From an uncultured Planctomycetaceae bacterium (GTDB taxonomy: Bacteria; Planctomycetota; Phycisphaerae; SM23-33): a stretch of DNA of 64,000 bases. The position numbers were made by a program, and so were the translations under genes. Below the pieces are notes generated by a model. The model did not search any database, had not been told where the DNA came from, and worked only from the letters and a program-made list of their open reading frames with translations. Position 1 is the first letter of the stretch; every line of letters starts with the position of its first letter. The stretch spans positions 6,103 through 70,102 of the forward strand of contig CAZIAZ010000003.1 of the NCBI GenBank assembly GCA_964536835.1, written 5' to 3'. This document shows, in pieces, positions 40,265 through 58,304 of this stretch.

Positions 40265-40275
40265 ATAGAATCAAC

Positions 40276-41424: not shown

Positions 41425-41427
41425 TCG

Positions 41428-42549
41428 TCATTTCATTACCAGCGTTTCGACGGCGGTAACGTAATTTTCGACGCACCTGTTCCACGTGAACTCTTTTACC
41501 CGCGAAAGGCCTCTGTCGACGAGAGATTCCCGCAGGCTGGCATCGGCCATAATTCTTCTCATGGCATGTGTTATGGCGTCGGTATCCTGCGGGTCCACGA
41601 AGACAGCGGCATCGCCGGCAACTTCCGGCAGCGACGTGGCATTGCCGGCCAGTACCGGCGTACGGCAGGTGAATGCGTCCAGTATCGGCAAACCGAAGCC
41701 TTCATACAGCGATACGTAACAAAGGGCATCTGCGGCACTGAGGAGCGCAGATATATCCTCCTCCGGTGCGAAACCATGCAGAATGCAACTTTGCCGAATC
41801 CTGTAATCGTCGAGCAGCACGGAGAATTCCTGCATGGCCGGCTTGTTAAGGCCGACTATCAGCAGGCTGAATTCGTTTCTCAACTCAGCCGGCAGATTCT
41901 TCCATGCCTCGATGATTCGATGCGTATTTTTTCGTCCGTCGCGTGCACCGAACGACAGGAAAAAACGTCTGCCAGCCGGCAGTGCGTATTTTTCGCGAAT
42001 TTTAGTCAGTTCGGCGGCGTCTTCGATGAACCGGCAGCCGGTGTCCGGCGCCCAGTGATTCACTACAATTTTATCGGCAAAATCGCCGAATTCGTTGAGT
42101 ATCTGCTGCCTGGAAAATTCGCTCGGCGTAAAAACCAGTCGGGCCCGCTTAATGCCGCGAGCTACGTTTTTCCGCCACCATTTCGCGTATCTCCTGTCGG
42201 GACAGTGCATTGGAATGATATCGTGTACGGTCAGAATCATCGGAATCATCGGCAGATACGGAGAAACGTTAGCCGGGCAGTGCAGTACGTCGGCATTTAT
42301 CGCCCTGGCGAGCAGCGGCAGACGTACGTGCAGCCACACATTCCAGCGATCGCCGATGATTTCACCGGTTTTTTGTCGAATATTCGCAATACCTTCAAAA
42401 GGATTCGGCTCATGCCTGTCGCGATGAATCATGACGAATTCCCACGATGGCCGTGCCTTTGCCGCATACAAGTAAAGGTCTATAAGATTTTTTCCAGTCC
42501 CCCGACGATTTGCCGCAAAAATCGTCCTGGCATCGAGGGCTATTCTCAT
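41428..42549 (-). CDS. GT4 glycosyltransferase
   Basis: MRIALDARTI is the N-terminus. The GT4 C-terminal motif is SLYEGFGLPILDAFTCRTPV. Confidence 0.8.
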   Translation of the reverse strand: MRIALDARTIFAANRRGTGKNLIDLYLYAAKARPSWEFVMIHRDRHEPNPFEGIANIRQKTGEIIGDRWNVWLHVRLPLLARAINADVLHCPANVSPYLPMIPMILTVHDIIPMHCPDRRYAKWWRKNVARGIKRARLVFTPSEFSRQQILNEFGDFADKIVVNHWAPDTGCRFIEDAAELTKIREKYALPAGRRFFLSFGARDGRKNTHRIIEAWKNLPAELRNEFSLLIVGLNKPAMQEFSVLLDDYRIRQSCILHGFAPEEDISALLSAADALCYVSLYEGFGLPILDAFTCRTPVLAGNATSLPEVAGDAAVFVDPQDTDAITHAMRRIMADASLRESLVDRGLSRVKEFTWNRCVENYVTAVETLVMK

Positions 42550-43709
42550 CTAAATGCTCCTTCGACTGCGTTTACGTAATTGTTCCAATTAAGTATAATA
42601 TGTTCTCTTTTTTGTGCTGATTTGCCCATTTCGGGGAGTTTTTCTCTGTTTTCAATGGCTATGCGCATAGCGTTGTATAGCCCGTCGGGGTTCTCAAGGT
42701 CGTATAACCAGCCTTGTCTTTTGTCGTTAATCATGTATTCCATTGAGCTTGTGACTTTGGGCCAATGATTTTCAGGGCCTAATACCGGCAGGGCAAAACT
42801 CATTGCCTCGCTGCATACGAAAGGTAATGCATCGTACCATGCGGCGTGTATGAACAGATCCGCTGCGCCGTACAGCTCCGGCATGTCGTCTCGTTGTCCC
42901 AGGAATTGAACTCTTTTTTCAAGTCCGAGTTTCGCTGTTTTTTTTAGCAGTTCCGCTTTTTGTGGGCCGTCGCCGGCAATCCACAGCCATACGTCATCGC
43001 GTTTCAGCCTGGCGAGCGACTCTATAATCCAACCCACATTTTTGTTGGCATCGAGACTGCCGGCGCAGAGCATCAGGAAAGCGTTTTGCGGGGTGGAGAG
43101 TTTTTCGCGCATTTCACTGCGGGTAGCGCGGGGCAGGCGACCGGCGTGTACGCTGCCGTGAGGACATATGACAGCCTTGTCTTCGTCGAAAGAGGCCAGC
43201 GACATTGCGTCCTTCAGCATTACTGGACTTTGAAAAATGATTCTGTCGCTGTTCAGGAGAGCTTTTCTTTCCTGAAAACCTATCGAATATCTGTCCAGCC
43301 GTGCCCAGAAATCCGGCTGCGGATTCGTGAATTTAAGACAGTGCATCAGCAGGCACGGAAACAGGAATACCCGCCTTACGTCGGGCCAGACTTTTTGGGC
43401 GGCATTCATCATATAAACGGATACGCCGACGAATACGTCCGGTTTTTCATGCCGGGCCAGCACTTTGGCTATGCGCGAGCTTCGGCCGATTGACGGTACG
43501 CGCCAGAATTTTCCCGATGGCGCATAAAAATATTCCACGGGTATGGATTCGTATTCATCGCAGCCGGTTTTATCCGCACTGTCTGCGCGCGACAGCATGG
43601 CCACGTGGTAGCCGCGGGATTTCAATGCGACTGCGATATTTTTAGCTACGGTCGCTCCGCCTCCCCCGTTGCGAAGATCGGTATAACATGCCACTATAAT
43701 CTTCATCAA
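42546..43709 (-). CDS. GT4 glycosyltransferase
   Basis: MKIIVACYTDLRNGGGGATV is the N-terminus. The C-terminal region is a GT-B fold. Confidence 0.8.
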   Translation of the reverse strand: MMKIIVACYTDLRNGGGGATVAKNIAVALKSRGYHVAMLSRADSADKTGCDEYESIPVEYFYAPSGKFWRVPSIGRSSRIAKVLARHEKPDVFVGVSVYMMNAAQKVWPDVRRVFLFPCLLMHCLKFTNPQPDFWARLDRYSIGFQERKALLNSDRIIFQSPVMLKDAMSLASFDEDKAVICPHGSVHAGRLPRATRSEMREKLSTPQNAFLMLCAGSLDANKNVGWIIESLARLKRDDVWLWIAGDGPQKAELLKKTAKLGLEKRVQFLGQRDDMPELYGAADLFIHAAWYDALPFVCSEAMSFALPVLGPENHWPKVTSSMEYMINDKRQGWLYDLENPDGLYNAMRIAIENREKLPEMGKSAQKREHIILNWNNYVNAVEGAFR

Positions 43710-43741
43710 CGTCCTCTGCTAGAAGATACAGTCTCTTCGGG

Positions 43742-44986
43742 TCAACCTCCGGTATCTGTTATATCGTCAAGAATGCTGCACAACTTTAACGTCAGCGATG
43801 TTGCCTCGAACTGGTTCAGGGCATCTTCGCTGACCTCCGCGACAAGCCGGCCTTCCTTCCATAAATTGAATGATTCGAGCAGCAGTTCCGCCATTTCCGC
43901 CGGCTTGCGAGACGAAATGAATCTGCAATTACAGATTTTTTTGACGATATCCGCATTGCAGCTTTTTTTGGGCATTGTGCCGATGATGGGCCGCCGCATG
44001 GCGAGATATTCGTAAGTTTTGGAACATATGATAATGTCGGTGTTTCCGTTGACCGGCACTTCCAGCCAGAATGCGTCGGCGGCTGCGACCATTTTTAATG
44101 CGTTGCATTGCGGAACTCGCGGGAAAAGTTCCACGCCTGAAATGTCTTTTTCGTCGCCTTGATAGCCGACCCAGCGGAAGATGAAGCGATGCGCAAAATC
44201 GGCGTCAAGTTCGCGGGCTATTCGTATTGCACTGAAAAGTTCGGCGTGGTTTTCATAACTCTGACCCATCATGGCGACCATGAATCTGCCGTCGTTGCGT
44301 GGCTGAGCCGTCGGGATATCTTCGTCGTGAAAACCGTTCTGTATGCAGGTTATTTTTGCCGCGTCCAGTGGATATCGCTGTCGGAGTTTTTCTGCCGCCA
44401 GCGGCGTTATGGGCGTAACGGCGGCGGCATGGTGAATCGCCGACGCTTCGATTCTGCGGGCAATCATATTCCGCAGCCCCTTGTATTCGTATAAAAAATT
44501 GTTCGTCCACTCATCGCGCATATCCAGGATTACGGGTACTTTGGCATCTCTGGCGAGTCTTTCGGCGATGCAGAGGTAAGTCTGCGGCGACGAGGTGACC
44601 CACACGGCGTCGATGTTGCCGGAGCGGATGAGTCGTCGGGCTTCTTTTACGAGCGGCCAATACCATCGGTTTACGAAAGTGTGCGGGTCAGGGAAAGAAA
44701 AATATCGTCGCGTCCGCCACAGCAGGCCGGCCTGCACCTTCTTTCTCAGCGATTCCGGATAGAGCGGTCGCGTCATTATGCCGAGTAAATTTTCGTCGCA
44801 GGGTTTTATGCGGGTCACGTCAAACTCGTCGTCAGAGATTTTTTCGTCGGTTTTTCCCTTGTCTGACGTGAGAATCTCGGCTCGCCAGCCGAAATCTTTG
44901 AGATGTTGGGCGAAACGCAATGGCCGCAGGGCGCCGACGGCGGTGTCGGGTCGGAAATAGTGGCATATCATCATCAGCGTCTTCAT
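43742..44986 (-). CDS. Glycosyltransferase (GT-B fold, GT4-like)
   Basis: The start at MKTLMMICHYF gives a 4-nt overlap with the wzx stop. It has the Rossmann-like duplication typical of GT-B enzymes. Confidence 0.6.
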   Translation of the reverse strand: MKTLMMICHYFRPDTAVGALRPLRFAQHLKDFGWRAEILTSDKGKTDEKISDDEFDVTRIKPCDENLLGIMTRPLYPESLRKKVQAGLLWRTRRYFSFPDPHTFVNRWYWPLVKEARRLIRSGNIDAVWVTSSPQTYLCIAERLARDAKVPVILDMRDEWTNNFLYEYKGLRNMIARRIEASAIHHAAAVTPITPLAAEKLRQRYPLDAAKITCIQNGFHDEDIPTAQPRNDGRFMVAMMGQSYENHAELFSAIRIARELDADFAHRFIFRWVGYQGDEKDISGVELFPRVPQCNALKMVAAADAFWLEVPVNGNTDIIICSKTYEYLAMRRPIIGTMPKKSCNADIVKKICNCRFISSRKPAEMAELLLESFNLWKEGRLVAEVSEDALNQFEATSLTLKLCSILDDITDTGG

Positions 44987-46554
44987 TGCGGTTTCCTTTT
45001 GTTTTTCCACGGCAGTATGGAGCTGAGTTCCGTGACGAGTATTTCCCGCTCATGCGTATTGAATCCGAGAAACCACGAAATCAGCATTGCGCCGACGGTA
45101 TAGAACAGTAGGCCGAACCCGAATCTCAGCCAGCCGTCCCAGAATGCGCCGAAATATTTTGCACTGTCGATAGCCAGGCTTTTCGCCGCGTAACCGAATA
45201 TCAGCATGCCAGCCAGCGAGAGCAGCCACCGTAGAACATTCGTCGTGAAAAATCTGCGAATCGACCCATGCACCCACCTGTGCAGGAGAATCGCTATGAT
45301 TACGTTGAATATGACCATCGGCACAAGCGTTCCCAACGCCACGCCTTCTATTCCCATACCGCACAGGAGAATGAAAATCAGCGTGAGTATGAGGTTCATG
45401 CCAGCCTGCAGCAGCGTTATGAGTGCACCGACTTTGATATGGCCCAGCCCGCTTATGATGCTGCCGCCGATTCGTACGGCCATGGCGGTATATTGCGGCA
45501 CTACCAGCAGCACTAGCACCCACTTGCTCTGCCAGAATTTCTCGCCCCAGAACAGGGCCATGAATTTGGGCCCGAAAAACATCAGGCCGGTAAAGAACGG
45601 TATCGCAAAAAACATCGTAAGTTTCGAGCCCCATTTCAGCATCAGTTGAAGCGAGGCGAAATCATTGCGGCTGGACATCTTGATGGTGCGAGGCGTGAGC
45701 ACTTCGGTAACCTGGCCGACGAAATTGCGGCTGTGGTCAATAAGCGTCAGCGGTATGCTGTAGAGCGTGACGAATACCGCCGAGTGCATAGTTGCGCCTA
45801 TTACGATGATGTCGGTGAAATATAGCAGCTTCGTGGCGATAGCCGACAGAAACGCCCAGAAACTGAAGCCGAAAAGTTCTTTGAATCGCAACATGTTCGC
45901 CAGCGACGGCCGTACGTAAAGCGGCGGATAGACCCTGTGGCCGATGACGAAAAACACCGTCACTGCGACGAGATTGGAAATCACCTGCACCATGGCCAGC
46001 TGTACGATGCCGCCGCCGTTTTTCATGACTATCACAGTGCCCGCCGCCCTAACTCCGAGCACGACCAGGTTCGTGACGTTGAACAGGTCGAAGCGTTCCT
46101 GGCTGATGACCGCCAGCGAATACGGAGACGCCAGAAATCCCAGCCACAGATTTGCGCCCGTCAGGAGCATTGCATAGAAACAGCCGTCGGCAAGGCTTTG
46201 CGGCACGCTGCGTTGAAACAGCCAGCAGAAATTTTCGCCTATGAACCATGATGCCACGAATATCGGAATGCCCAGAAACACAAAAAAAGTCATCGACGTG
46301 CTTATCACTTCGTTGACTTTTCGCGTCTCGCCCTTGCCCTGGTAAAAATTTATGAATCGGCCGAGGCCGTTACGCAGGCCTATGTCCGCCAGACCCATGT
46401 AACCCGTGACGGAAACAATCAGCGACCATACGCCGAAAAGTTCCTCGCCGAGTGACCGAACCACCAGCCGCGAAAGGTACATCAATATGATGAAATTCGC
46501 GGCGTAGCCGACCCAGCTTGCGGAAAGATTTTTGAGATGCCGTCCTGAACCCAT
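44983..46554 (-). CDS. wzx: Wzx-type oligosaccharide flippase (MOP/polysaccharide biosynthesis protein family)
   Basis: A 523-aa ORF with about 12-14 TM helices. Its N-terminal region is typical of the family (LARNSGW...-type). Confidence 0.75.
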   Translation of the reverse strand: MGSGRHLKNLSASWVGYAANFIILMYLSRLVVRSLGEELFGVWSLIVSVTGYMGLADIGLRNGLGRFINFYQGKGETRKVNEVISTSMTFFVFLGIPIFVASWFIGENFCWLFQRSVPQSLADGCFYAMLLTGANLWLGFLASPYSLAVISQERFDLFNVTNLVVLGVRAAGTVIVMKNGGGIVQLAMVQVISNLVAVTVFFVIGHRVYPPLYVRPSLANMLRFKELFGFSFWAFLSAIATKLLYFTDIIVIGATMHSAVFVTLYSIPLTLIDHSRNFVGQVTEVLTPRTIKMSSRNDFASLQLMLKWGSKLTMFFAIPFFTGLMFFGPKFMALFWGEKFWQSKWVLVLLVVPQYTAMAVRIGGSIISGLGHIKVGALITLLQAGMNLILTLIFILLCGMGIEGVALGTLVPMVIFNVIIAILLHRWVHGSIRRFFTTNVLRWLLSLAGMLIFGYAAKSLAIDSAKYFGAFWDGWLRFGFGLLFYTVGAMLISWFLGFNTHEREILVTELSSILPWKNKRKPQ

Positions 46555-47715
46555 TTACTTTCCGCCTTTCATGAGATGTTCGCAGATGAGTTCGATTTTT
46601 GCCGGCCATGTTTCGTCAATCATCGCCCGTGAATATTTTTGGCGCATCGCCGGCGAATCTTTTATCGCGGCGTCGATAGCCCGTTCAAATTCATCCGCGC
46701 CGCTCGCGAGCCGCACAAGGCCTTTTTCTGCGTATCGTCTGACTTCGGGCATGGGCGACGAAACCACCGGCAGGCCGGCTGCGAGGTATTCGCGAAGTTT
46801 TATAGGATTGGCGGCTGCGGTGAGCTCGTTCATTTGGAACGGTATTATGCCCACGTCGAAAGCGCGGCAGTATGCAGGCAGCTCTTTATAGCTTTTTCTG
46901 CCGAGGAAATGCATGTTGTGAAATTTTCGATATTCGTCAATATTCATATTGGCGTCGCCAATCAGCACAAACTGCCACTCAGTGCGGCGGCTGGCGATAA
47001 TCGCCAGCATTTTAATATCGACCCAGTCCCGCAGAAGGCCGAAAAACCCTATTCGCGGCTGCGGTATCTCTGCAACGTCGTGCGGCAGCGGCAGTGGGGC
47101 GTCGTCGTTTGCCGCCGCGGCGAAATGACTGTAATCGACGCCGTGTGGAACAAGCAGCGTATTGGGATTGTCTTTTATCCTGTCGTCGTAAAGATTCTGC
47201 GATGTGGCGACGACAAGGTCGCTACGGCGGCATAATGCCTGTTCGTCGCGTCTGACCTGGTTCGGGTCGTAGCCGGTAAAATGCGCAAAATCATCGACGC
47301 AATAATAGATGACCTTTTCCGGATGGAGCGAGTCGATGCAATATGCCACATCCGGCGCGAAAGACCACACATGGAGCGGCCTGCCGGCTGCGATTTGATG
47401 TACGGCGCGGCGTATCTGCCATCCGAGCAGTATCCGGTTGATTTTTTTTGCAGCCTTGCTGGCTGGAAACGGCAGAACCAGCGGCGTCAGAACGAAAAGA
47501 TTTTTTCGCATTTCCTTGATGCCGCCGAAAACCTGCGAAAGTTTTTTGAGGATGTAGCGTGCATCGTCAGCCGTCGCCGACGGCGTGCGGGAAGCGTGAT
47601 AGTTTACCCATAGTACCACGTTGTGTTCAGCCAGGATATGCGCCACGTGATGTTTGCTCGTCGGCGGGGCATCGTAACCGCTGGCGAAACAGACTATGAC
47701 TCGGTTTTCTATCAT
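46555..47715 (-). CDS. GT4 glycosyltransferase
   Basis: The true start is the ATG at 47715, which overlaps the upstream stop (ATGA). MIENRVIVCFASGYD... follows. It has a GT-B fold. Confidence 0.7.
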   Translation of the reverse strand: MIENRVIVCFASGYDAPPTSKHHVAHILAEHNVVLWVNYHASRTPSATADDARYILKKLSQVFGGIKEMRKNLFVLTPLVLPFPASKAAKKINRILLGWQIRRAVHQIAAGRPLHVWSFAPDVAYCIDSLHPEKVIYYCVDDFAHFTGYDPNQVRRDEQALCRRSDLVVATSQNLYDDRIKDNPNTLLVPHGVDYSHFAAAANDDAPLPLPHDVAEIPQPRIGFFGLLRDWVDIKMLAIIASRRTEWQFVLIGDANMNIDEYRKFHNMHFLGRKSYKELPAYCRAFDVGIIPFQMNELTAAANPIKLREYLAAGLPVVSSPMPEVRRYAEKGLVRLASGADEFERAIDAAIKDSPAMRQKYSRAMIDETWPAKIELICEHLMKGGK

Positions 47716-48896
47716 TCGACATCCTTGAGGCAGAGCGAGACAAAATCCTTCAGCCTCGCATGCCACGAATACTTCTCCAGAACGCACTGCCGGGCGGCAT
47801 AGCCCAGCATGTTTCGAACGTCTGCCTCCGAAAGTAAATATAACAATTTTTCGACCCATTGACCAGACGTTTCTGCAAGTTCCACGTCTTGGCCCTGCGT
47901 CACGTCCAGGCCGCTCATGGCTTGCGGGCTCACCACCACCGCCTTAGCCATGGACATTGCTTCAAGCACCTTGTTCTGTATGCCACGGCCGATATGCAGC
48001 GGACAGACGGATACTGCTGCCGCCTGAATGTACGGCCTTACGTCTACGACGTTGCCTGTGACCCGCACGCCTTCCATCATCGCCATGTCCCGCACGTTTT
48101 TTGAGGGATTTCGGCCGACGATGACGAAAATGGCGTTGTCGAATTTTTCGCGGATGCAGGGCAGGACTTCGGTTGCGAACCATTCGACGGCTTCGGCGTT
48201 GGGCCGGTAGTCCATCGAGCCGGTGAAGACCATTGCGTGTTCGCCCAGTCCCGTAATCGGCGACAGAAGCGACGGGTTGAAAAAATCTGCGTCCACGCCG
48301 TTGGCTGCCACGTGCAGATTGGGAATGCCGTCGCCTAGAATCTCAGCCTCTTCCCGCGATACCATCACCACGTCGTTACATTGCTCTACGCATTTTCTTT
48401 CCAGCCGCGCGACTCTGGATGATTCGATATTGAAAATCTTTTTCAGCGGCCAGGCTGTCCTGCATGCGTAGTCGGCCCACTTGGCCGAGTCGGCATCCAC
48501 AATGTCCATGATGCGTCTGGCGGCGTCGGCTTTCATTAGCAGGTTCAATACCGACGATGAATATCCCACGGCGACGTCGAACCGGCCGAGCCGTCTTATT
48601 TTCCGGCCCGCCATGCAGGATGAAAAATATCCTTCCGATACGCTCCTGCCCATGATGAAGGAACACGCGCCGCGGACGAGTGCGCTGCGACGGACTATGG
48701 GGAAGGTTTCAACGGCTGAACAGTATTCAGCGAGTTTTTTTGCGCTGGCGTAATCGTCGGCTCCTGCGCTGCCGGCGATTACGGTTACGTCAGAACCGTT
48801 TCGGGCCAGCTCGCATATTTCGTTGAACGCACGCACGCGTTCGCCCTTGTCGGGCGGGTACGGCATTCGATGCGCTATGTACAGCAGTCTCTTCAT
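47712..48896 (-). CDS. GT4 glycosyltransferase resembling the PEP-CTERM/EpsH1-system-associated sugar transferase family
   Basis: The N-terminus is RLLYIAHRMPYPPDKGERVRAFNEICELA. The YPP-KG-type start is characteristic of that family and is recalled from memory, not searched. Confidence 0.7.
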   Translation of the reverse strand: MKRLLYIAHRMPYPPDKGERVRAFNEICELARNGSDVTVIAGSAGADDYASAKKLAEYCSAVETFPIVRRSALVRGACSFIMGRSVSEGYFSSCMAGRKIRRLGRFDVAVGYSSSVLNLLMKADAARRIMDIVDADSAKWADYACRTAWPLKKIFNIESSRVARLERKCVEQCNDVVMVSREEAEILGDGIPNLHVAANGVDADFFNPSLLSPITGLGEHAMVFTGSMDYRPNAEAVEWFATEVLPCIREKFDNAIFVIVGRNPSKNVRDMAMMEGVRVTGNVVDVRPYIQAAAVSVCPLHIGRGIQNKVLEAMSMAKAVVVSPQAMSGLDVTQGQDVELAETSGQWVEKLLYLLSEADVRNMLGYAARQCVLEKYSWHARLKDFVSLCLKDVE

Positions 48897-48929: not shown

Positions 48930-49988
48930 TTATGGTATCCATCTGGTGACGATGCCGCCGGCTATTCGCGTGGCGAAGAGCGGCATGTGTCGCCAGATTT
49001 TGATGGCTAATGAAAAACCGCTGTTGCCCGGACTCAGATTGGGCAGTGTCGTCGAGCGGTTCAACGCTATCTGGTAATGCAGTTGCGATGGCTCGAAACC
49101 CATATGTCGTTTGAATGCGTAAGGGCCGGAGTTGTTTCGGCGGGTACGGTTGAAGTCGAACTGTCGCAGGCCCTGTTTGACGGCGTATTCCATAAGCGAA
49201 ACGTACATTACGTTGTTTGCTCCGAGTTTCATGCCGCGCGGCAGTGAGCCGGAGAAGTAGGCTACCATCGTGTCGCGGAATATGAACGACACGACGCCGG
49301 CTAGCATTTTATCGCCTTCGAAAACGCCCAGCGTCACGCAGTTTTTGCCGTAATTGTTTTTCAACTCACGCCAGAGAGACCTGCTGTAATTCGGCGAACC
49401 CAGCCGTCGCAGCGTATAAGCGTACAAGTCGTATACGTCGTCCATGAGTTCGTCGCCGATGCGCGGCTGAAGGATTTTGAGGCCGTTGCGTGTCGCCGCC
49501 CGCGCCTTTTTGGGCAGACCTTTGAGTACGTCGTCAGGGTCAGCCGGCAGCGATTTTATAAACGTATCGTAGCGGGCTATTACCGGTAAATCGAGATGCG
49601 AGGGCGATACGTTGCGAAGTTCGAGATATGCCGCACCGTGTTCGACGCTGATTTCGCGGGCTTTTTCGAAGAGCAGCCTTTCCGTGTCTTCGTCGTCGGC
49701 TAAAATGCCGCCGTATGTCGCATATGGAATTGAAACGAGAATTTTGCCTTCAAAAATGCTTTTTACTAAAAACAGCGGAAGAACGCCGGCTAAACTGCCG
49801 TCGCTTTTTTTTGCCGCCAGATGCAGCGGCGCATGACGGTAGGTCTTTTGGACTGCGAGCGACCACGCCGGCTGGTGAAAAACAGTCCCGTCCCGATGCG
49901 CGAGAACGTAATCGTCCCAGGCGGCGATGTCGTCGTCTCGCAAAAAATCCGCACAGCCGTCTGGTTGACCGTTCAAATGAGTGCTCAC
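48930..49988 (-). CDS. FemAB-family (GNAT-fold) protein of the type associated with EPS/PEP-CTERM loci
   Basis: A 352-aa ORF with two GNAT-like halves. The LKGLPKKARAATRNGLK motif is similar to FemAB. Confidence 0.55.
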   Translation of the reverse strand: MSTHLNGQPDGCADFLRDDDIAAWDDYVLAHRDGTVFHQPAWSLAVQKTYRHAPLHLAAKKSDGSLAGVLPLFLVKSIFEGKILVSIPYATYGGILADDEDTERLLFEKAREISVEHGAAYLELRNVSPSHLDLPVIARYDTFIKSLPADPDDVLKGLPKKARAATRNGLKILQPRIGDELMDDVYDLYAYTLRRLGSPNYSRSLWRELKNNYGKNCVTLGVFEGDKMLAGVVSFIFRDTMVAYFSGSLPRGMKLGANNVMYVSLMEYAVKQGLRQFDFNRTRRNNSGPYAFKRHMGFEPSQLHYQIALNRSTTLPNLSPGNSGFSLAIKIWRHMPLFATRIAGGIVTRWIP

Positions 49989-49992
49989 TATT

Positions 49993-51924
49993 TCAATATC
50001 TGTATACGTTGCCTGGAAGAAAGTGTCGCCTGTCCGTCAGCACAAGGCCGGCGAGTTTGACGTTGGCGGCGTTTAGTAGTCGTATGGATTTTAGTACCGA
50101 CTCCCGCTTGGTGCGGTTCATGCGTACTACAAGCAGTGCTTCGCCGGTTGCCAGGCCGAGCATGCCAACGTCGGAAAAGCTGTTTATCGGCGGCGTGTCT
50201 ATAATCACGTAATCGTACAGTCGCCGCAGGTCGGTCACGAATTCCATTAGGTCGGGCCCTCCGACGAGTTCGCCGACTTCGTTCGGATGAGCCTTGCCGG
50301 CGGGAATGAAAAACATGTTCGGATAAGCCGTCGGTTGGGTTACGTCCTTTATGGTGGCTGCCCCGCGCAACACTTCAGCTGCGCCAGGGGAACGGCGGCC
50401 TTTGAGGTAGCGTGATATCGCACCTTTGCGAAGGTCGCAGTCGACGACTATTGTCTTGTAATCCAGCCGCTCTATCATGACCAGCGCCAGGTTCAGACAC
50501 GTCAGCGTTTTGCCGTCGCCGGTTTCAGGTGAAGTTATGAGATAGCAGAACCGCTCGTCCGTTGCCGTCGCAAGCAGGGAGGTACGCAACGCGCGAAACT
50601 CCTCGGTAATCGGGCCGCCGCGATCCTTATGCGCAATGAGCAGGTCGGACATGTGAAGCTTGTTGTCTATCTGGTCTATTGAACGTTGTTTGGCGGTCGG
50701 CCTGGCTGCCGACATGGCCGACAGGACGCCCTGCGGCGTTATGTGATCCTGGGACAACTCATATATGGGCGTACGCTGCGGTGTTTTTACCGGTTCGGGC
50801 GGAGTGACGATGTGATAACCGGGCTGAAAATCCACGGTTTCATCGTCTTCCGGCGACGATTCCTGCAGCGAAGGCTTATCGCCGAGTGAAGGCAGATCGC
50901 TCTGGGCGATATCCTTCGATGCGCGGTCGAGTTCTTCTTCAATATCCTTGAGATTTATGACTTCATCGCTCGACGGCGGCGGAGTAGTTTTGTCCATGTG
51001 AACGAAGACCGGCTCGGAGGCGGCGGTATCGTCCGTGGTAGCGGCGGCAGGTTGCGGCGTTAAGGGGTGTTCTTCCTGCGGCGGCTTAGCCTCAGTCGGC
51101 GGAGCGCCGAAATCCCACAAAGAGGCTTCCTTGAGAACGTCCGTCATTAACTCGTGACTTATCTCTGTGACTTTACGGGTATAACCGGTAAGCAGTGCGT
51201 TATCGCAAAGCACGTTTATAAGGCGAGGAATGCCCTGGGTGGCGAAATATATGTCCTCTTTAGCCTGGGCTGAAAATTTTGCCAGGCAGCCTTCGCCGGA
51301 CGCTATTTTTAAACGATAATCTATATATGCCGAAACATCATCCCTGGACATGTGGCCAAGGTTATACGTCAATACTATTCTCTGGCGGAACGATTCCCAC
51401 TGCGGTTCGAGCATACGGTTGCGAAGCTCCGGCTGGCCGACCAGGATTATCTGCAACAGCCGCTGGCCGTTACGCTCCCAGTTCGCCAATAATCGTATTT
51501 CTCGCAACGTGTCATCCGGCAGATCCTGTGCTTCATCCAGCAGCAGCGCCACGAGACGGCCTCGCTGATGCGCCCTGGCCAGATGTCTTTCTATGTTTTC
51601 GAGAAGCGATATCTTGTCCTGGGTCGGGTCTATCCTCATGCCCAGCTGCACGGCAAGGCCGCGCACGAGCTGTTTGCCGGATTGCGGCGGATTCTGCATG
51701 TTGACGGCTATGCAGTTGCCGGCCAGACGGCTTATCAGCATGTTGACAAGAAAAGTTTTGCCCGTGCCGACGTCGCCGGTTATCAGGACCATGCCTTTGT
51801 GGCTCTGGACGGTGTATATCATGTTGGCCAGAGTCTCGGAGTGAACCGCGCTTTCATAAAAGAACCGCTCGTCGCACGTCAGTGCGAACGGGAATTCTTT
51901 CAGCCTGTAAAATTCCAGATACAT
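49993..51924 (-). CDS. Fusion protein: ExeA/GspA-like AAA ATPase (N-terminal) plus bacterial tyrosine (BY) kinase catalytic domain (C-terminal)
   Basis: The N-terminus is FPFALTCDERFFYESAVHSETL...ITGDVGTGKTF (ExeA-type). A Pro-rich linker follows. The C-terminus has a Walker A' (SPETGDGKT), VVDCDLRKG, a Walker B (DYVIIDTPP) and ends ...GNVYRY. Confidence 0.75.
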   Translation of the reverse strand: MYLEFYRLKEFPFALTCDERFFYESAVHSETLANMIYTVQSHKGMVLITGDVGTGKTFLVNMLISRLAGNCIAVNMQNPPQSGKQLVRGLAVQLGMRIDPTQDKISLLENIERHLARAHQRGRLVALLLDEAQDLPDDTLREIRLLANWERNGQRLLQIILVGQPELRNRMLEPQWESFRQRIVLTYNLGHMSRDDVSAYIDYRLKIASGEGCLAKFSAQAKEDIYFATQGIPRLINVLCDNALLTGYTRKVTEISHELMTDVLKEASLWDFGAPPTEAKPPQEEHPLTPQPAAATTDDTAASEPVFVHMDKTTPPPSSDEVINLKDIEEELDRASKDIAQSDLPSLGDKPSLQESSPEDDETVDFQPGYHIVTPPEPVKTPQRTPIYELSQDHITPQGVLSAMSAARPTAKQRSIDQIDNKLHMSDLLIAHKDRGGPITEEFRALRTSLLATATDERFCYLITSPETGDGKTLTCLNLALVMIERLDYKTIVVDCDLRKGAISRYLKGRRSPGAAEVLRGAATIKDVTQPTAYPNMFFIPAGKAHPNEVGELVGGPDLMEFVTDLRRLYDYVIIDTPPINSFSDVGMLGLATGEALLVVRMNRTKRESVLKSIRLLNAANVKLAGLVLTDRRHFLPGNVYRY

Positions 51925-51935
51925 CTGCGAAAGCC

Positions 51936-53606
51936 TCAGTTCATTGTCTTTTCAATTTTGTGTTGTATGAATTCTATCGGCGACGAATTCCATCGTGCGT
52001 ATTCATCCGGCTCCTGCAGCCACAAAACGGTGCTGTACGTGGAGACGGCGATGGCGGCAAGCAGTACAAGGGCGACTGCCGGCTCAATCAGCCATGTAGA
52101 GAATTTTCTGCGAGCCTTGACCGACGGCGGTATTATTTCGCTTATCACGCCGTAGACCGGCAGATTGAATATGCGAGCAGCCTCTTCAGGCGTTGAAACG
52201 GTACGGTCAAGTTTGTATAACAGGAAAATTACGGCCATGCCGAATGCAATGCCGCCGACGAATGCGAAAGCGAAAATCATGAGTATGTTCGGCGACGACG
52301 GGCCCAGCGGCACTTCCGCGCGGTTTATTTCGCTCAGCAGCGTGCGACGCTTGGAAACCTCGGCAGCCAGGATGTCCTTGACGTTTTTGACCTGCCGGTC
52401 CCAGTAATCGTAATCGTTGCGTTTGGACTGCCAGTCTTCCATTAGCTGGCCGTAAATCTTTTTGCCCTCGACGTAGCTTTCCTGGGCGGCTTCGAAGCCC
52501 TTGAGCTGCGTTGTGGCGAGAGTCAGGTTCGCCTTTATCTGTTCTATTTCTTCCTGTTTGCCGGCTGCCATCGCCGCGAATGACTGCAAACCCACACCCT
52601 GCGAATAAATTTTCTGTACCACGATTTCCGCCGGCGTACGCTTTATGCGGTCTTCCATCATCTTTATGCTGGCCTGGAGGGATTTGACGACGGGATGCTC
52701 GTCGGTCATGTGATCCAGAACCCTGGCGGTCTCAAGCTGGTTGCGATAATTCTGCAAATCCTTGTCCATCTGCGCCAGTTCGGGATTGGGGCCGTAAATG
52801 ACCTGCGAGGGCGAGTTGTTCGAATCGCTCTCTTCACGAGCCTTCATGAGTTTGGCGTATTCTTTCTGGGCGAGCATGAGCTGGCTTTCCAGGGCGGCTT
52901 TTTTGGCTTTGGTCTCCTGGATGTGTTGAAGTATGACAATCGGCGTGCCCATGGTAATGCCGACGTTTTTCTGCTCAAAGTCGCCGCGTTTTTCGTTGAT
53001 GATGGAGTAATCTTTTTCAGCCTGCTGTTTGCGGCTTATGAGATAGTCGAGGCTGTCCTGCAATCGGGTGCGGATGCTCTGGCTGATGTTGTTTATATAG
53101 ATTTTGATAAGTTCGTTGGGAACTTTGGCGGCTAGAAGGGGGTCGGTGGCTTTATATGCGACGATGACGTAGTCGACGTTCTGCGAGCGGACCTCGAATT
53201 CGATGGAAATGTTTTTCTTCATGTTGTCGATGAGCTGCTGACGTTCACGACGGCCTTTGTTGGTAAGTTGGCCGGTGTCGTATTCCCGTTCCAGCGGCTT
53301 TATAAGGCCGTCGGCTTCGAGTTCGTCGACAAGCTGTTCCATCGCGCTTTGCGTAATAAAATCCTGCGGGAGAGTCTTTTTGATTGTATCGAACGATTCG
53401 CTGCTTTTATCGTTGGTTTGCTGCGTGGCCACGTCACTGCGGCGTTCGAATACGGCACTGGAGGTGTATTTTTTCGGCATTACCCGCTGGGCGACCTGCA
53501 GGGCTATGATGCAGAAAAGCGCTGCGCAGAGCAGACATACCCTGCGGTATTTCATGAATACCCGCAGAATTTCGTTAAACGAAATGGATGTCGTCTGTTC
53601 CGGCAT
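51936..53606 (-). CDS. Polysaccharide chain-length determinant protein (Wzz/GumC-like)
   Basis: It has an N-terminal TM, a long periplasmic coiled-coil region and a C-terminal TM (MIFAFAFVGGIAFGMAVIFLL). Confidence 0.75.
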   Translation of the reverse strand: MPEQTTSISFNEILRVFMKYRRVCLLCAALFCIIALQVAQRVMPKKYTSSAVFERRSDVATQQTNDKSSESFDTIKKTLPQDFITQSAMEQLVDELEADGLIKPLEREYDTGQLTNKGRRERQQLIDNMKKNISIEFEVRSQNVDYVIVAYKATDPLLAAKVPNELIKIYINNISQSIRTRLQDSLDYLISRKQQAEKDYSIINEKRGDFEQKNVGITMGTPIVILQHIQETKAKKAALESQLMLAQKEYAKLMKAREESDSNNSPSQVIYGPNPELAQMDKDLQNYRNQLETARVLDHMTDEHPVVKSLQASIKMMEDRIKRTPAEIVVQKIYSQGVGLQSFAAMAAGKQEEIEQIKANLTLATTQLKGFEAAQESYVEGKKIYGQLMEDWQSKRNDYDYWDRQVKNVKDILAAEVSKRRTLLSEINRAEVPLGPSSPNILMIFAFAFVGGIAFGMAVIFLLYKLDRTVSTPEEAARIFNLPVYGVISEIIPPSVKARRKFSTWLIEPAVALVLLAAIAVSTYSTVLWLQEPDEYARWNSSPIEFIQHKIEKTMN

Positions 53607-53620
53607 ATATCACCGCGTGT

Positions 53621-54478
53621 TTATTGGCCTCCGCCGCCTCCGCCGCTGACCCATACGCCGTTGTCGTATGACGGGTCAAAGATGGCTCGAATGTCCCATA
53701 TGCCCTGCCTGGTTGCATCGAGCGGCGAAACAGCGTTCCATATCTTCCTGCCGACTGCTATGCACGGGTCGGGCTGAACGTAGACGACGTCGTTGGGCAT
53801 CAGGATGATGTTGTTCGACATGTCGCCGTATTTCGCCATCGCCATGATGTTTATTACCATTTTCTTTCTCGGCGACATTGGCCGTTCCCTGCGGACGCCT
53901 CTGTAATAATATCCCTTATCGTATTCGCTGCCCTGCTCCACTCCGCCGGACTGCGGCGAGTCGCCGCGTACGATTATTATACGCTCAGACCATGACTCCG
54001 GCGTCAGGCCGGCTTGCGCGACGGCGTCGAGGACGGTATCGCGACCGGTCCACTTTTTTGGGCCGGGATTTTTAACCTCACCCATGACGTAGTATCGCTG
54101 GGAGTCAAAACGCATGACGTCGACGTTAACAGTGGCTTCGGAGTAGTATTTCTCCGCAGCCCGCAGAATGTCACGCTCTATTTCATGCACGGTTTTGCCG
54201 GCGACGAATATTTCGCCGATGAGCGGCACATTTATCTTGCCGTCGGGCATGACGAGTATCTGCATGCCGCGCTTGCCCAGTTCCGGCCGAAATTCCCGCA
54301 TGTTGTCGGAACTGATGAGCAGCAGGTCGGGCGGATATACGCGATATTCAGGCGTAGCCACAGGGGTACGCGGCTCCGGCAGAAATTTGTTGACGGATTT
54401 CGCGTTATAACAGCCCGCTGCGAATGACAGCATTACACAAATCGCAATCGCAGCCAGATTTTTACAAGCAACACGCAT
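53621..54478 (-). CDS. Wza-like polysaccharide export outer-membrane lipoprotein (Poly_export plus SLBB)
   Basis: The start is at the MRVACKNLAAIAICVMLSFAAGC lipobox. The YRVYPPDLLLIS...MPDGKINVPLIGEIFVAGKTVHEIE pattern is Poly_export. This is the first gene of the operon. Confidence 0.8.
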   Translation of the reverse strand: MRVACKNLAAIAICVMLSFAAGCYNAKSVNKFLPEPRTPVATPEYRVYPPDLLLISSDNMREFRPELGKRGMQILVMPDGKINVPLIGEIFVAGKTVHEIERDILRAAEKYYSEATVNVDVMRFDSQRYYVMGEVKNPGPKKWTGRDTVLDAVAQAGLTPESWSERIIIVRGDSPQSGGVEQGSEYDKGYYYRGVRRERPMSPRKKMVINIMAMAKYGDMSNNIILMPNDVVYVQPDPCIAVGRKIWNAVSPLDATRQGIWDIRAIFDPSYDNGVWVSGGGGGGQ

Positions 54479-54691
54479 CAAATTGTCGTAAACTCCATAT
54501 CCGCATATCCTTACGCAATTACACCAACCGTGTTTCAGGGCTGACAGTCTTGCAAAAATATCCTCCGTGTGCCCAAAGCACATGGATACACTTAATCCGT
54601 ATCGGCATTTTCAGACAATAAAGCTCAGCCTTTTTGACGTTTTTATCCCAAAAAAAATTCATTAATAGCCGGAATACTTTTTCATAAGCAC

Positions 54692-54721: not shown

Positions 54722-54904
54722 TAATGTGGAGCGGCTGAGCATCCGAGGATGTGTGATTTTAACCGCCGTTGATGAATCATATAAAAACAAGACGAATGCG
54801 TCCGTGGATTTAAACATATATCCGCAAAGTTGTGGACGGTCAGGCTTTCGGCGTTGACGTCAGAAAATTCCGGCAGCCTGGCAATCCGGAGGTTTTGGAA
54901 TAAG

Positions 54905-57001
54905 ATGCCCGGAATCATCATCATTGCATGTTTTGCGATTATTATAGGCCTTTTATCGGCTGCGCTGGCGGTTGTCAGGAAAAGGCTTCTTGCAGCCAGG
55001 CTGGACCTGGAGGCTGAATCGGACGCCAGGCAGGATTCAGACGTGATGATGCGACAGGTGGAATCGCAGTATCACGCCTTGCTGGAAGGCATAACCGAAG
55101 GGGTCGTAATCGTCGATTCCGGACATCGTATAAAGATGATAAACCAGACCATGTGTGACATATTCGTCACTGACCCCAAGGGCATTTTTGAGCAAAAATG
55201 TTTTGAGCATCTGTGCGGCTCGGAAAAACCGTGCGAAAATTGCCCTGGAATCTGGTCGATAGCATCCGGCAAGCCTGCCGTTTCCACTCTTGAAATGCAT
55301 CGCGCGGACGGTTCAAAGCTGGTCGCCAGAATACACTCAATGCCCGTCAAGGATAAAAACGGCGACTTGACCATGTTCATGCTGATTGTGGAAGATATAA
55401 CCAATCGACACGACTGGGAGACGTCAATCAGGCAGAACGAAAGGCGGTACAGAACGCTTTTCAGGGAATTGGGCGAAGGGTTCATGTATATAAAGTCCGA
55501 AAACTCTTCAAATGAGCAATCTGCCGTCAGTTTCAAAATATTGGATATGAACCCGGCCATGGAAGAGTTACTCGGCTCAAATCGAGCCGACATGATAGAC
55601 GCAGAAATAACACAGACGCCGCTAGGGAAGATACAGGAGTTCATGGAGCACATGAAAGCCGTTGATTCGCTCGGCAGTTCGGCTCAGGATGAAATTTATC
55701 TGCCGGAACTCGATAAATACATCGCCTACCGGATATTTAGGCCTTCGAGCATGCGTATTGCGGTAATATGCCGTGAAACTACGGAATATCGGCTCGCCGA
55801 GCAGCAACTCTCGGAGGCACAGGAACGTGAACTCGAATTCGGCACCCGTATTCAGCAGACGATGCTCAAAGGCCGGCGGCCTGAGCACCTCTGCGGCGTA
55901 GAGGTGGCCGTACACACCATTCCGTCATATAAAATCGACGGCGATTTTCACGACTTCATTACATATGACTCCAAACATTTTGACGTGATAATAGGAGACG
56001 TCATGGGCAAGGGCGGCTCGGCTGCACTGCTGGGGGCTGCCGCCAAGCTCGAATTCGTACGGGATATAGGCGCACTGCTTTCGGCGTCCGGCAATACCGA
56101 ACTTTCCACGCCGGAGGAAATCGTCAACAAGGTCCACGCCCATATCTGCGAAAACCTGATGGAACTCAGCAGTTTCGTGTCGGCGTGTTACGCCAGGTTC
56201 AACCTCGATAAAAAACGGCTGGACTACGTCGACTGCGGCCATACCGCCGTCGCGCACCACCGCAGCGCTGTCGGGGAGTTCAGCCTTCTTCACGGCGATA
56301 ATATGCCGCTCGGCTTTTCGGATGCGGAAGTTTATGCCCAGCATTCCGTAATTTTCAACGACGGCGATGTGTTCGTGTTTTATTCCGACGGCCTTATTCA
56401 GGCGACGGATGCCGCCGGCAATGTCTTCGGCGAGGAACGGCTAAAACATCATATCACCATGAACGCGCAGATGTCAGCCGAAATCGTCTGCCAGAAACTC
56501 ATCGAAGCCGTAAAAACCTTCACCGGCAAACCCAGCCAACTTGACGATCTGACCTGCATAGTTGTAAAAATAATCAGCCCAAAAGAAAACAATGTTCTTA
56601 TCCGCAAGGACATGAATTTGCGGCAGAAGCTGGTTGACCTTGTCGGGCTGAGGAATTTCATCCGCGCATGCTGTCAGGAGTCGCCGCTGACGCTTGACGA
56701 GGAATTCATTTCCCGCATTGAATTGGCGGCTAACGAAACCGCCAGCAATATCATATTCAATTCCGGAGAATCTGACGCTGCGATAACGGTTATTTTCAGC
56801 ATTTACGATTCGCAGGCTGTGGTGGATATCGTACATTCGGGGCAGATGCTCCCCGAAAAAGAAAGTACCTCGCCGGCGCTCGACGGAAGTGATGAGTCGG
56901 GATTCAGCCTGTTCCTCATAAGAAATTGCGTCGATAAGGTGGAATATGACAGGACTCCAGACGGGTTAAACAGAGTCAGATTGATAAAGTATATCGCGTA
57001 A
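54905..57001 (+). CDS. Membrane-anchored PAS-domain sensor phosphatase (PP2C/SpoIIE) fused to an RsbW-like HATPase_c domain
   Basis: The domain order is an N-terminal TM (IIIIACFAIIIGLLSAALAVV), two PAS-like regions, a PP2C core (DFHDF...GDVMGKGGSAALL...DDLTCIVVK) and a C-terminal GHKL-like region. Confidence 0.75.
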   Translation: MPGIIIIACFAIIIGLLSAALAVVRKRLLAARLDLEAESDARQDSDVMMRQVESQYHALLEGITEGVVIVDSGHRIKMINQTMCDIFVTDPKGIFEQKCFEHLCGSEKPCENCPGIWSIASGKPAVSTLEMHRADGSKLVARIHSMPVKDKNGDLTMFMLIVEDITNRHDWETSIRQNERRYRTLFRELGEGFMYIKSENSSNEQSAVSFKILDMNPAMEELLGSNRADMIDAEITQTPLGKIQEFMEHMKAVDSLGSSAQDEIYLPELDKYIAYRIFRPSSMRIAVICRETTEYRLAEQQLSEAQERELEFGTRIQQTMLKGRRPEHLCGVEVAVHTIPSYKIDGDFHDFITYDSKHFDVIIGDVMGKGGSAALLGAAAKLEFVRDIGALLSASGNTELSTPEEIVNKVHAHICENLMELSSFVSACYARFNLDKKRLDYVDCGHTAVAHHRSAVGEFSLLHGDNMPLGFSDAEVYAQHSVIFNDGDVFVFYSDGLIQATDAAGNVFGEERLKHHITMNAQMSAEIVCQKLIEAVKTFTGKPSQLDDLTCIVVKIISPKENNVLIRKDMNLRQKLVDLVGLRNFIRACCQESPLTLDEEFISRIELAANETASNIIFNSGESDAAITVIFSIYDSQAVVDIVHSGQMLPEKESTSPALDGSDESGFSLFLIRNCVDKVEYDRTPDGLNRVRLIKYIA

Positions 57002-57746: not shown

Positions 57747-58304
57747 TCAGGAATTTTTGGTTTTTTTGATGGCTTGGCGAAGTAATGAGGCATAGGAACG
57801 GGGTTCATGGCCTTCGATTTGCAAGAGTTTGCGAGTCTTTTCCAGTTCGGCTTCGTCGGGGCCTTCGATTTCCACGAAAAATCCGAGCCTGTCGAGTTCG
57901 TCCAGTTCAATCCTGCAACAGCCCAGACGATAGCTGGTGCGTTTTTTGACCACTTCGAAAGTTTTTTCATAGCCTAACGAATTGAGAATTTTCCCGACAG
58001 CCGCCGGCGAGGAGACCGCCGTTTCATATTCAGGCCTTACTTTGGCCCAAACATCTTCGCGGGGGCCTTTCCATGTTAAAAAATATTCGTCGTCAGCCGC
58101 CCCGTCCAGATGCACCACATGCCGTAGTCGCAGACAACTGTCGCCGTTCATGACGCATCCGTCGGGCGTATCGTAAAAATCGTCCTTTTGGGTGACGTGG
58201 CAGAGGAATTCCGCGCCCAGCCCGGCTAGTCGGGCCTTGATTTTATCATGCGAATCGACGGGGATTTTAAGCTCTTTTTCTTTCATGCCACTAAAGTATG
58301 GCAT
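57747..58304 (-). CDS. CYTH-domain protein (class IV adenylyl cyclase / triphosphatase family)
   Basis: ELKIPV is an ExExK-like motif. The 185-aa length and beta-strand pattern fit the CyaB/ThTPase family. Confidence 0.7.
   Translation of the reverse strand: MPYFSGMKEKELKIPVDSHDKIKARLAGLGAEFLCHVTQKDDFYDTPDGCVMNGDSCLRLRHVVHLDGAADDEYFLTWKGPREDVWAKVRPEYETAVSSPAAVGKILNSLGYEKTFEVVKKRTSYRLGCCRIELDELDRLGFFVEIEGPDEAELEKTRKLLQIEGHEPRSYASLLRQAIKKTKNS

Follow-up and report, generated by a model that had tools for sequence, protein, structure and literature searches.

Many environmental exopolysaccharide (EPS) loci of the Wzx/Wzy type, those of the PEP-CTERM/XrtA type included, encode a second ATPase (AAA_22, TIGR03015 type) beside their bacterial tyrosine kinase (BY-kinase). 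The only genetic or experimental anchor found for this second ATPase is the promonan operon of Sphingomonas sp. LM7, which encodes an outer-membrane barrel, Wza, the AAA+ ATPase PrmE, Wzz, and the CapB-family BY-kinase PrmG; PrmE and the kinase are both genetically required for EPS, and PrmE was described by the authors as an ATPase "not previously associated with polysaccharide assembly" (PMC11340318). Here, a stretch of 64,000 nucleotides from an uncultured Planctomycetaceae bacterium (contig CAZIAZ010000003.1, positions 6,103 to 70,102 of the forward strand), referred to throughout at its full length as the window, is analyzed for a single gene on its minus strand, at 49993-51924, in which an AAA_22 ATPase and a BY-kinase are joined in one polypeptide.

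Both modules and their genomic linkage are of known kinds, and it is the fusion itself that constitutes a new variant. No published description of an ExeA-like ATPase-BY-kinase fusion was found in the literature on ExeA, TIGR03015, PEP-CTERM, and BY-kinase architectures, and the original PEP-CTERM paper makes no mention of these ATPase and kinase families. Fusions of this kind are already present in sequence databases under generic names, among them "capsular exopolysaccharide synthesis family protein" and "polysaccharide biosynthesis tyrosine autokinase." While current models of BY-kinase function are not overturned by the fusion, it renders the question of the second ATPase experimentally tractable, through the interaction of the two modules, their 1:1 stoichiometry, and the order of their two ATP cycles.

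Described systems and their relation to the window protein

In Staphylococcus aureus CapA/CapB (4jlv, 3bfv, 2ved), a soluble P-loop BY-kinase is paired with a separate polysaccharide co-polymerase (PCP), CapA, whose C-terminal juxtamembrane tail activates the kinase. Such a split arrangement, a soluble CapB-type kinase plus a separate PCP, is standard. The kinase half of the window protein shares 27-29% identity with CapB and, in a Foldseek search with the AlphaFold2 (AF2) model, superposes on CapA1B1 4jlv with a TM-score of 0.83 and a root-mean-square deviation of 1.5 Å; both kinases carry the Walker A, A', and B motifs and the ExxRxxR motif. CapB, unlike the window protein, has no N-terminal AAA+ domain and ends in a multi-tyrosine C-terminal cluster. 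The Escherichia coli kinases Wzc and Etk (3la6, 7nhr, 9r62) likewise share the kinase fold and the octamer-forming motifs, but Wzc carries its kinase on the same polypeptide as the transmembrane/periplasmic domain of the PCP, whereas the window kinase is fused to a cytoplasmic AAA+ module and its PCP is separate. An assignment of the window protein to the Wzc-type PCP-2a class was therefore rejected.

A preliminary description of this gene had correctly identified the neighbor at 51936-53606 as a separate Wzz-like gene, a PCP by its TIGR03007 and Wzz matches, and had taken the missing transmembrane activator as a sign of a new mode of kinase regulation. The latter idea is not supported, as the split layout is that of CapA/CapB and the neighboring PCP carries what looks like the usual juxtamembrane tail.

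The N-terminal half, in turn, has in common with ExeA/GspA and MshM the AAA_22 module, the N-terminal Y..F..L...PF motif, Walker A and B, and PRLIN. ExeA differs in having a transmembrane helix, a periplasmic PF01471 domain, and ExeB and secretin partners. The label "ExeA/GspA-type" is thus apt as to the AAA_22 family and inapt as to ExeA proper: Pfam and NCBIfam searches found neither a transmembrane segment nor the peptidoglycan-binding domain PF01471 in the fused protein, and no ExeB/GspB partner or secretin nearby in the window, while the C-terminal half is a kinase and the neighbors are EPS genes. Finally, the LM7 operon resembles the window locus in being an EPS operon of the Wzy-dependent type that adds an AAA+ ATPase to Wza, Wzz, and a soluble BY-kinase. 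It differs in that PrmE and PrmG are distinct polypeptides whose genes flank that of the PCP.

Architecture of the fused protein

According to the open reading frame (ORF) list and its translation, positions 49993-51924 (minus strand) form one ORF, 643 codons long before its stop codon and free of internal stops. Its coordinates and motifs had been quoted correctly before, if without the strand. The parts of the gene, all on the minus strand, are as follows.

49993-51924, minus: whole fused gene; stop at 49993-49995; full-length homologue P0001 85% identical
51115-51924, minus: AAA+ ATPase domain, residues 1-270 (AAA_22; TIGR03015-like), from Pfam, NCBIfam, AF2, and Foldseek
51754-51777, minus: AAA+ Walker A GDVGTGKT, residues 50-57; G50, G53, G55, and K56 invariant in 58 homologues
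51529-51549, minus: AAA+ Walker B ALLLDEA, residues 126-132; D130 and E131 invariant in 58 homologues
50650-51114, minus: acidic proline-rich linker, residues 271-425, predicted disordered, from model confidence, composition, and substitution rates
50905-50952, minus: predicted linker helix LKDIEEELDRASKDIA, residues 325-340, from DSSP, model confidence about 67-78
49996-50649, minus: BY-kinase domain (CapB/CpsD-type P-loop), residues 426-643, from TIGR01007, phmmer, and Foldseek
50584-50604, minus: kinase ExxRxxR motif EEFRALR, residues 441-447, from the motif scan
50506-50529, minus: kinase Walker A PETGDGKT, residues 466-473; G, K, and T invariant across the fused set
50428-50454, minus: kinase Walker A' TIVVDCDLR, residues 491-499, from the motif scan
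50188-50211, minus: kinase Walker B YVIIDTPP, residues 572-579, from the motif scan
49996-50031, minus: C-terminal tail RRHFLPGNVYRY, with two tyrosines only (Y641, Y643), from the translation

Both halves are supported by domain models, and the single-polypeptide fusion first proposed from the sequence is thereby borne out. In the N-terminal half, which carries an EFPF motif at residues 10-13, AAA_22 of Pfam matches residues 41-171 (4.6e-27; 95.3 bits against a cut-off of 27), and TIGR03015 of NCBIfam, "XrtA/PEP-CTERM system-associated ATPase," aligns nearly end to end (residues 1-266 to model positions 1-265 of 269; 5e-71). The best specific match of the kinase half is TIGR03018, "XrtA-associated tyrosine autokinase" (residues 430-622; 6e-36); the general BY-kinase model TIGR01007 covers residues 441-630 with 112.8 bits, exceeding its cut-off of 108.05, AAA_31 of Pfam matches residues 469-599 (2e-9), and the Wzc model NF008568 aligns to the kinase part alone (residues 422-629). 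The Walker motifs of BY-kinases and their ExxRxxR motif are all present, with GDGKT at 469-473, DCDLR at 495-499, YVIIDTPP at 572-579, and EEFRALR at 441-447. The product is a soluble protein of the cytoplasm that combines two ATPase modules, and, given that the ATPase and kinase motifs are intact and their residues conserved, both nucleotide sites look functional and catalytically competent.

The linker that joins the two modules is rich in proline (14%) and aspartate (10%), with 8% each of threonine, serine, glutamate, and alanine, and has an isoelectric point of 4.4. The predicted local distance difference test (pLDDT) score of the AF2 model stays below 50 across residues 285-323 and 342-412, which flank the predicted helix at 325-340; the latter is conserved in the homologues P0001 and L089. 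Between the window and L090, the assembly that encodes P0001, the ratio of nonsynonymous to synonymous substitution rates (dN/dS) is 0.105 for the linker codons (nonsynonymous and synonymous differences, pN 0.20 and pS 0.71), compared with 0.045 and 0.043 for the two flanking domains, and all linker indels are in frame. This low ratio, together with the in-frame indels, indicates that the linker is translated and constrained by purifying selection.

Origin and recurrence of the fusion

The closest unfused relatives of the window gene carry its two halves as neighbors. In the Phycisphaerae-type loci L086, L087 (GCA_004196275.1), and L088, whose kinases are 58-62% identical to the window kinase half, a gene for an outer-membrane polysaccharide export protein (OPX) is followed by the PCP (549-587 aa), a 291-aa AAA_22 ATPase, and, after a 9-nt gap that contains GGAG, a kinase of 275-280 aa starting at GTG; FemAB and further glycosyltransferase (GT) genes then lie 3' of the kinase in two of the three loci, L086 and L088. 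Their ATPases and kinases match TIGR03015 and TIGR03018, as the window halves do, possess all of the ATPase and kinase motifs, occupy the same operon position, and stand at distances of about 0.37-0.41 from the window protein in the N-half and kinase trees. Since the gene order is the same in these closest unfused relatives, the window gene represents the fusion of an adjacent ATPase-kinase pair. Unlike it, the three loci maintain two genes 9 nt apart, and their kinases start with MANVWDAMKKH and end with a cluster of 4-5 tyrosines (KYYIPNYLYRYS), whereas in the window protein the kinase follows a linker of ~155 residues, lacks a detectable N-terminal motif, and bears two tyrosines in its tail. 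The two partners are hence separate proteins both in these related loci and in the described LM7 operon, as had been asserted at the outset.

The N-terminal (M/V)ANVWDAMKKH motif is shared by standalone planctomycetal kinases (L086:8001-8843, L087:8001-8828, L088:4157-4993, and a set of 116). A hidden Markov model (HMM) of the motif, built from the 116 standalone N-termini, found none in the window clade, and the notion that the linker helix LKDIEEELDRASKDIA is a remnant of MANVWDAMKKH was dropped. Four distant fusions (P0021, P0157, P0224, and P0137) retain the former kinase N-terminal motif (..VYDALRRAE..) in mid-protein.

It could be argued that the fusion is an artefact, in which a lost stop or a compensated frameshift introduced by assembly or sequencing error conceals two genes of the organism. 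Two observations speak for this: L089, a 1.9-kb metagenomic contig (JGI 3300010357, 1-1906; 76% nucleotide identity), changes reading frame within the linker, between ...RRT and PIYELSQ..., and is called as two genes with products of 331 aa and 263 aa; and single-ORF fusions number 0 of 80 among the loci listed from the species-representative collection of GTDB (one genome per species), which are not a census. However, the same uninterrupted architecture recurs in independent assemblies, namely in P0001 (644 aa; independent Logan assembly L090), 85% identical to the window protein, in P0002, a partial sequence from an NCBI "Phycisphaerae bacterium" metagenome-assembled genome that is 100% identical and spans the ATPase-kinase junction, and in P0003-P0006, also fused and about 50% identical. 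The purifying selection on the linker codons and the conserved blocks weigh against an artefact as well. Moreover, a linker of ~155 residues far exceeds what the C-terminal tail of the ATPase and the N-terminal extension of the kinase add up to in the unfused pairs, and is too long to have arisen by simple read-through of the 9-nt gap. The artefact reading is thus largely refuted and highly improbable. On these sequence comparisons, the gene is a genuine single-polypeptide fusion, its frame intact in the window and in P0001; in L089 the frame is shifted, probably through a sequencing error, though this could be a natural fission.

Beyond this clade, the search for proteins of the same architecture, which the preliminary description had called for, recovered 26 fused proteins, all 26 in the ATPase-to-kinase order. 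Of these, 14 each represent a 50%-identity cluster and rank among the best 150 matches from an exhaustive search of 1.8 billion representatives. P0005, among the nearer homologues, has the same neighbors as the window gene, while distant fusions of the myxobacterial type (P0023, P0026, P0039, P0055, P0215, and others), with 26-30% full-length identity to the window protein, adjoin an OPX gene and in one locus also have a TIGR03016-like outer-membrane protein nearby. In a rough neighbor-joining tree of kinase domains, built without support values, the fusions form several groups among the standalone kinases, and Fitch parsimony on this tree calls for at least 4 fusion/fission changes.

The 80 GTDB loci also provide a measure of how widely the pair is linked. 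The ATPase-to-kinase order in adjacent genes occurs in 9 of them (Planctomycetaceae, Acidobacteriota, Myxococcota, Krumholzibacteriia, and others) and the reverse, kinase-to-ATPase, in 4; in a further 5 the two genes are one gene apart, which is the classical proteobacterial XrtA order. The unfused adjacent pair thus extends over several phyla, and the fusion is a rare state derived from the ATPase-to-kinase arrangement.

Two further kinds of domain arrangement surfaced among the relatives. P0022 and P0132 carry two tandem AAA_22 (ExeA-like) modules, another multi-ATPase architecture of the same family, and several kinases of the same clade (P0134, of 1082 aa, P0153, P0149, and P0150) bear N-terminal extensions of 200-860 residues with no recognizable domain.

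Predicted structure of the two modules

The full-length AF2 model, built on an alignment of 103 sequences, resolves into two domains predicted with confidence, residues 1-270 and about 425-630, in which the block means of pLDDT mostly exceed 90. Modelled alone, the N-terminal half reaches a mean pLDDT of 92, and its best Foldseek matches are MuB, TnsC, and ORC/Cdc6, AAA+ proteins that function as ATP-dependent oligomerizing switches or loaders and not as unfoldases; no relative of solved structure was found for this half by sequence search. Among 58 homologues, the Walker A (GxxGxGK) and the Walker B DE residues of the AAA+ module are invariant, as are Q181/R182 and P233/R234/N237, candidate arginine-finger and sensor-2 residues.

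The C-terminal half is matched by a range of BY-kinases in both structure and sequence. Foldseek retrieves, besides CapA1B1, the subunits of the Wzc octamer and the kinase domains of Etk, BceF, and VpsO, with 3la6, 3cio, 6z0p, and 6u1q among the matching entries, and phmmer retrieves CapA1B1 4jlv at 2e-24 and likewise the Wzc, Etk, BceF, and VpsO kinases. In CapB and Wzc, the ExxRxxR motif has a role in the contacts of the oligomeric ring.

Operon context and the PCP partner

Between 54583 and about 34123 every gene lies on the minus strand, beginning with the OPX and PCP genes.

53621-54583, minus: OPX (Wza-like) outer-membrane polysaccharide export protein, first gene of the operon (Poly_export 1e-14, SLBB_2; TIGR03027-like)
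51936-53606, minus: PCP or chain-length determinant (Wzz-like), kinase partner (TIGR03007 4.5e-27, Wzz)
52119-52214, minus: juxtamembrane cytoplasmic tail of the PCP after its second transmembrane helix (KLDRTVSTPEEAARIFNLPVYGVISEI...), candidate kinase-activating segment (TIGR01006)
48930-49988, minus: FemAB-family XrtA/PEP-CTERM-associated protein (TIGR03019, 299 bits against a cut-off of 260)
47712-48896, minus: TIGR03087 (stp1) PEP-CTERM/XrtA-system GT (370 bits against a cut-off of 317)
39083-47859, minus: six further GT genes and a Wzx-like flippase (44983-46554), from Pfam/NCBIfam
37687-39096, minus: TIGR03097 O-antigen-ligase-like protein, exceeding its cut-off
35481-37715, minus: double GT4 protein of 744 aa with two tandem GT4 domains (stp2/EpsE-like), from domain models
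34123-35484, minus: AMP-dependent ligase, from domain models

Only 11 nt separate the PCP stop from the start of the fused gene, which is preceded by GAGG, and only 4 nt lie between its own stop and the GTG start of the FemAB-like gene; these spacings place it inside a tightly packed operon. Three XrtA-system markers, TIGR03019, TIGR03087, and TIGR03097, all score above their cut-offs in the window.

The PCP comprises an N-terminal transmembrane helix, a long coiled-coil periplasmic part, a second transmembrane helix at about 440-463, the "KLDRTVSTPEEAARIFNLPVYGVISEI" stretch, and a further hydrophobic helix. Its juxtamembrane tail carries a "LDRTVSTPEEAARIFNLPVYGVI" segment, and residues 426-490, which span the second transmembrane helix and the tail, match the CpsC/CapA-family model TIGR01006 over its C-terminal part (1e-8). 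By analogy with CapA, this tail is likely to serve as the kinase activator.

Proposed mechanism and alternative explanations

A fusion that recurs, is selectively maintained, holds a constant order, and always stands beside OPX and PCP amounts to Rosetta-stone evidence, and suggests that the ATPase and the kinase work as one complex. In the explanation that we favor, a Wzx/Wzy-type EPS operon of a Phycisphaerae-type planctomycete had two neighboring genes, coupled in translation, that fused into one, the ancestral genes being a TIGR03015-like AAA+ ATPase (AAA_22, ExeA/GspA family, with an initiator/MuB/TnsC-like fold) and a CapB-type BY-kinase (TIGR03018-like). The kinase domain would dock on the cytoplasmic tail of the neighboring PCP and oligomerize via its ExxRxxR helix into a ring, as CapB and Wzc do, and the flexible linker would tether an AAA+ module to each kinase subunit, below the ring. 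The fusion would in this manner fix at 1:1 a complex that relatives assemble from two proteins. The AAA+ module itself would most likely switch the oligomerization or assembly of the PCP-OPX export machine in an ATP-dependent manner, and not act as an unfoldase. For the explanation as a whole, from the fusion of the adjacent pair to the PCP-docked 1:1 mechanism, we estimate a probability of about 70%. The earlier suggestion of a new scaffold for export-machinery assembly is a reasonable one, and what the data show is an already tightly linked pair covalently joined.

A number of points weigh against this explanation. Neither half attains the equivalog cut-off of its specific model, with 239.2 bits against 324.5 for TIGR03015 and 123.7 bits against 230.65 for TIGR03018, and PrmE is a putative member of AAA_22/TIGR03015. 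Inter-domain packing in the full-length AF2 model is not confident (predicted TM-score 0.56), and that model holds no evidence of a direct contact between the ATPase and kinase modules. A profile search with the fusion alignment, behind a word filter that passes 8000 candidates, was dominated by standalone ExeA-like ATPases; fused proteins make up a small share of this family, and the fusion may thus be selectively near-neutral. As for the partners, the PCP tail drew only a marginal match among PDB sequences (PslE, E 0.11), with CapA not retrieved, and its likeness to the CapA activator rests on the family-model match and known motifs. None of the large ORFs in the 64-kb window was identified as an exosortase gene, which leaves the label "XrtA system" uncertain.

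The C-terminal tail invites a different reading, one of regulatory rewiring, in which the fused kinase half would largely have given up multi-site tyrosine autophosphorylation to become mainly a nucleotide-dependent oligomerization module, single-site or non-phosphorylating. A covalently attached, initiator-like AAA+ switch would then replace multi-site tyrosine phosphorylation in cycling the PCP-kinase ring, the ATP cycle of the AAA+ half controlling its assembly and disassembly on the PCP. The short tyrosine tail noted in the preliminary description is indeed reduced to two tyrosines, compared with 3-5 in standalone sister kinases. Fused kinases of the Phycisphaerae type (n=12; consensus K(H/F)FIPxxLYRxL) have 1-2 tyrosines in their last 14 residues, as against a mean of 3.6 in standalone relatives (n=157; consensus KYYIPNYLYRYS), a difference with a Mann-Whitney p of about 1e-5 that ignores kinship, and Y641 is nearly invariant among the fusions. 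Yet the same eroded tail is found in P0255 and P0210, standalone kinases near the fused groups, and the distant myxobacterial-type fusions keep rich YGYGYG clusters, with a degenerate ExxRxxR. In two fused proteins, P0003 and P0004, the Walker A' motif of the kinase is VDFNLR, in which asparagine takes the place of the second aspartate (DxN for DxD), and some of the fused kinases may thus be less competent catalytically; the window protein, however, retains ExxRxxR and every catalytic kinase motif. A regex scan of the window for phosphotyrosine phosphatase motifs of the low-molecular-weight (LMW-PTP) and PHP types found none, a weak negative; the genome may carry a phosphatase gene outside the window. 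We consider the rewiring unlikely. Were it true, the widespread TIGR03015/PrmE-type ATPase would be a core, direct partner of BY-kinases.

The kinship of the AAA_22 module to ExeA/GspA, after which many homologues are named "general secretion pathway protein A" in JGI, has also been weighed for what it might say about function: the AAA+ half could promote the insertion or multimerization of an outer-membrane channel, be it the OPX or an associated beta-barrel, with the kinase fusion merely a tether. The ATPase, fused or unfused, consistently stands beside the OPX gene, in myxobacterial-type loci it lies beside the TIGR03016-like outer-membrane protein, and in Sphingomonas the outer-membrane barrel PrmC, PrmD (Wza), and PrmE are all required (PMC11340318). 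Such a role is nonetheless quite improbable for the window protein, which, lacking a transmembrane helix and a periplasmic peptidoglycan-binding domain, would be unable to reach the periplasm by itself, and which has neither the ExeB/GspB and secretin partners in its vicinity nor a TIGR03016-like gene in its operon, where none was found.

Additional features of the window

The gene for the double GT4 protein (35481-37715, minus strand) is another fusion within the same operon. Downstream of the AMP-dependent ligase gene, the last gene assigned to the operon, lies at 30831-33977 (minus strand) a 1048-aa ORF with no Pfam or NCBIfam match. The protein encoded at 21581-23512 (minus strand) is also exactly 643 aa long and was considered as a paralogue of the fused gene; it is instead an unrelated ABC-F (Uup/EttA-like) protein. 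Divergent from the EPS operon, at 54830-57001 (plus strand), is the gene for a 723-aa protein that combines PAS, SpoIIE/PP2C phosphatase, and HATPase_c_2 (anti-sigma-kinase-like) domains and represents a candidate regulator of the operon. A class IV (CYTH) adenylate cyclase gene is located at 57747-58304 (minus strand), near both the EPS operon and this PAS-PP2C protein.

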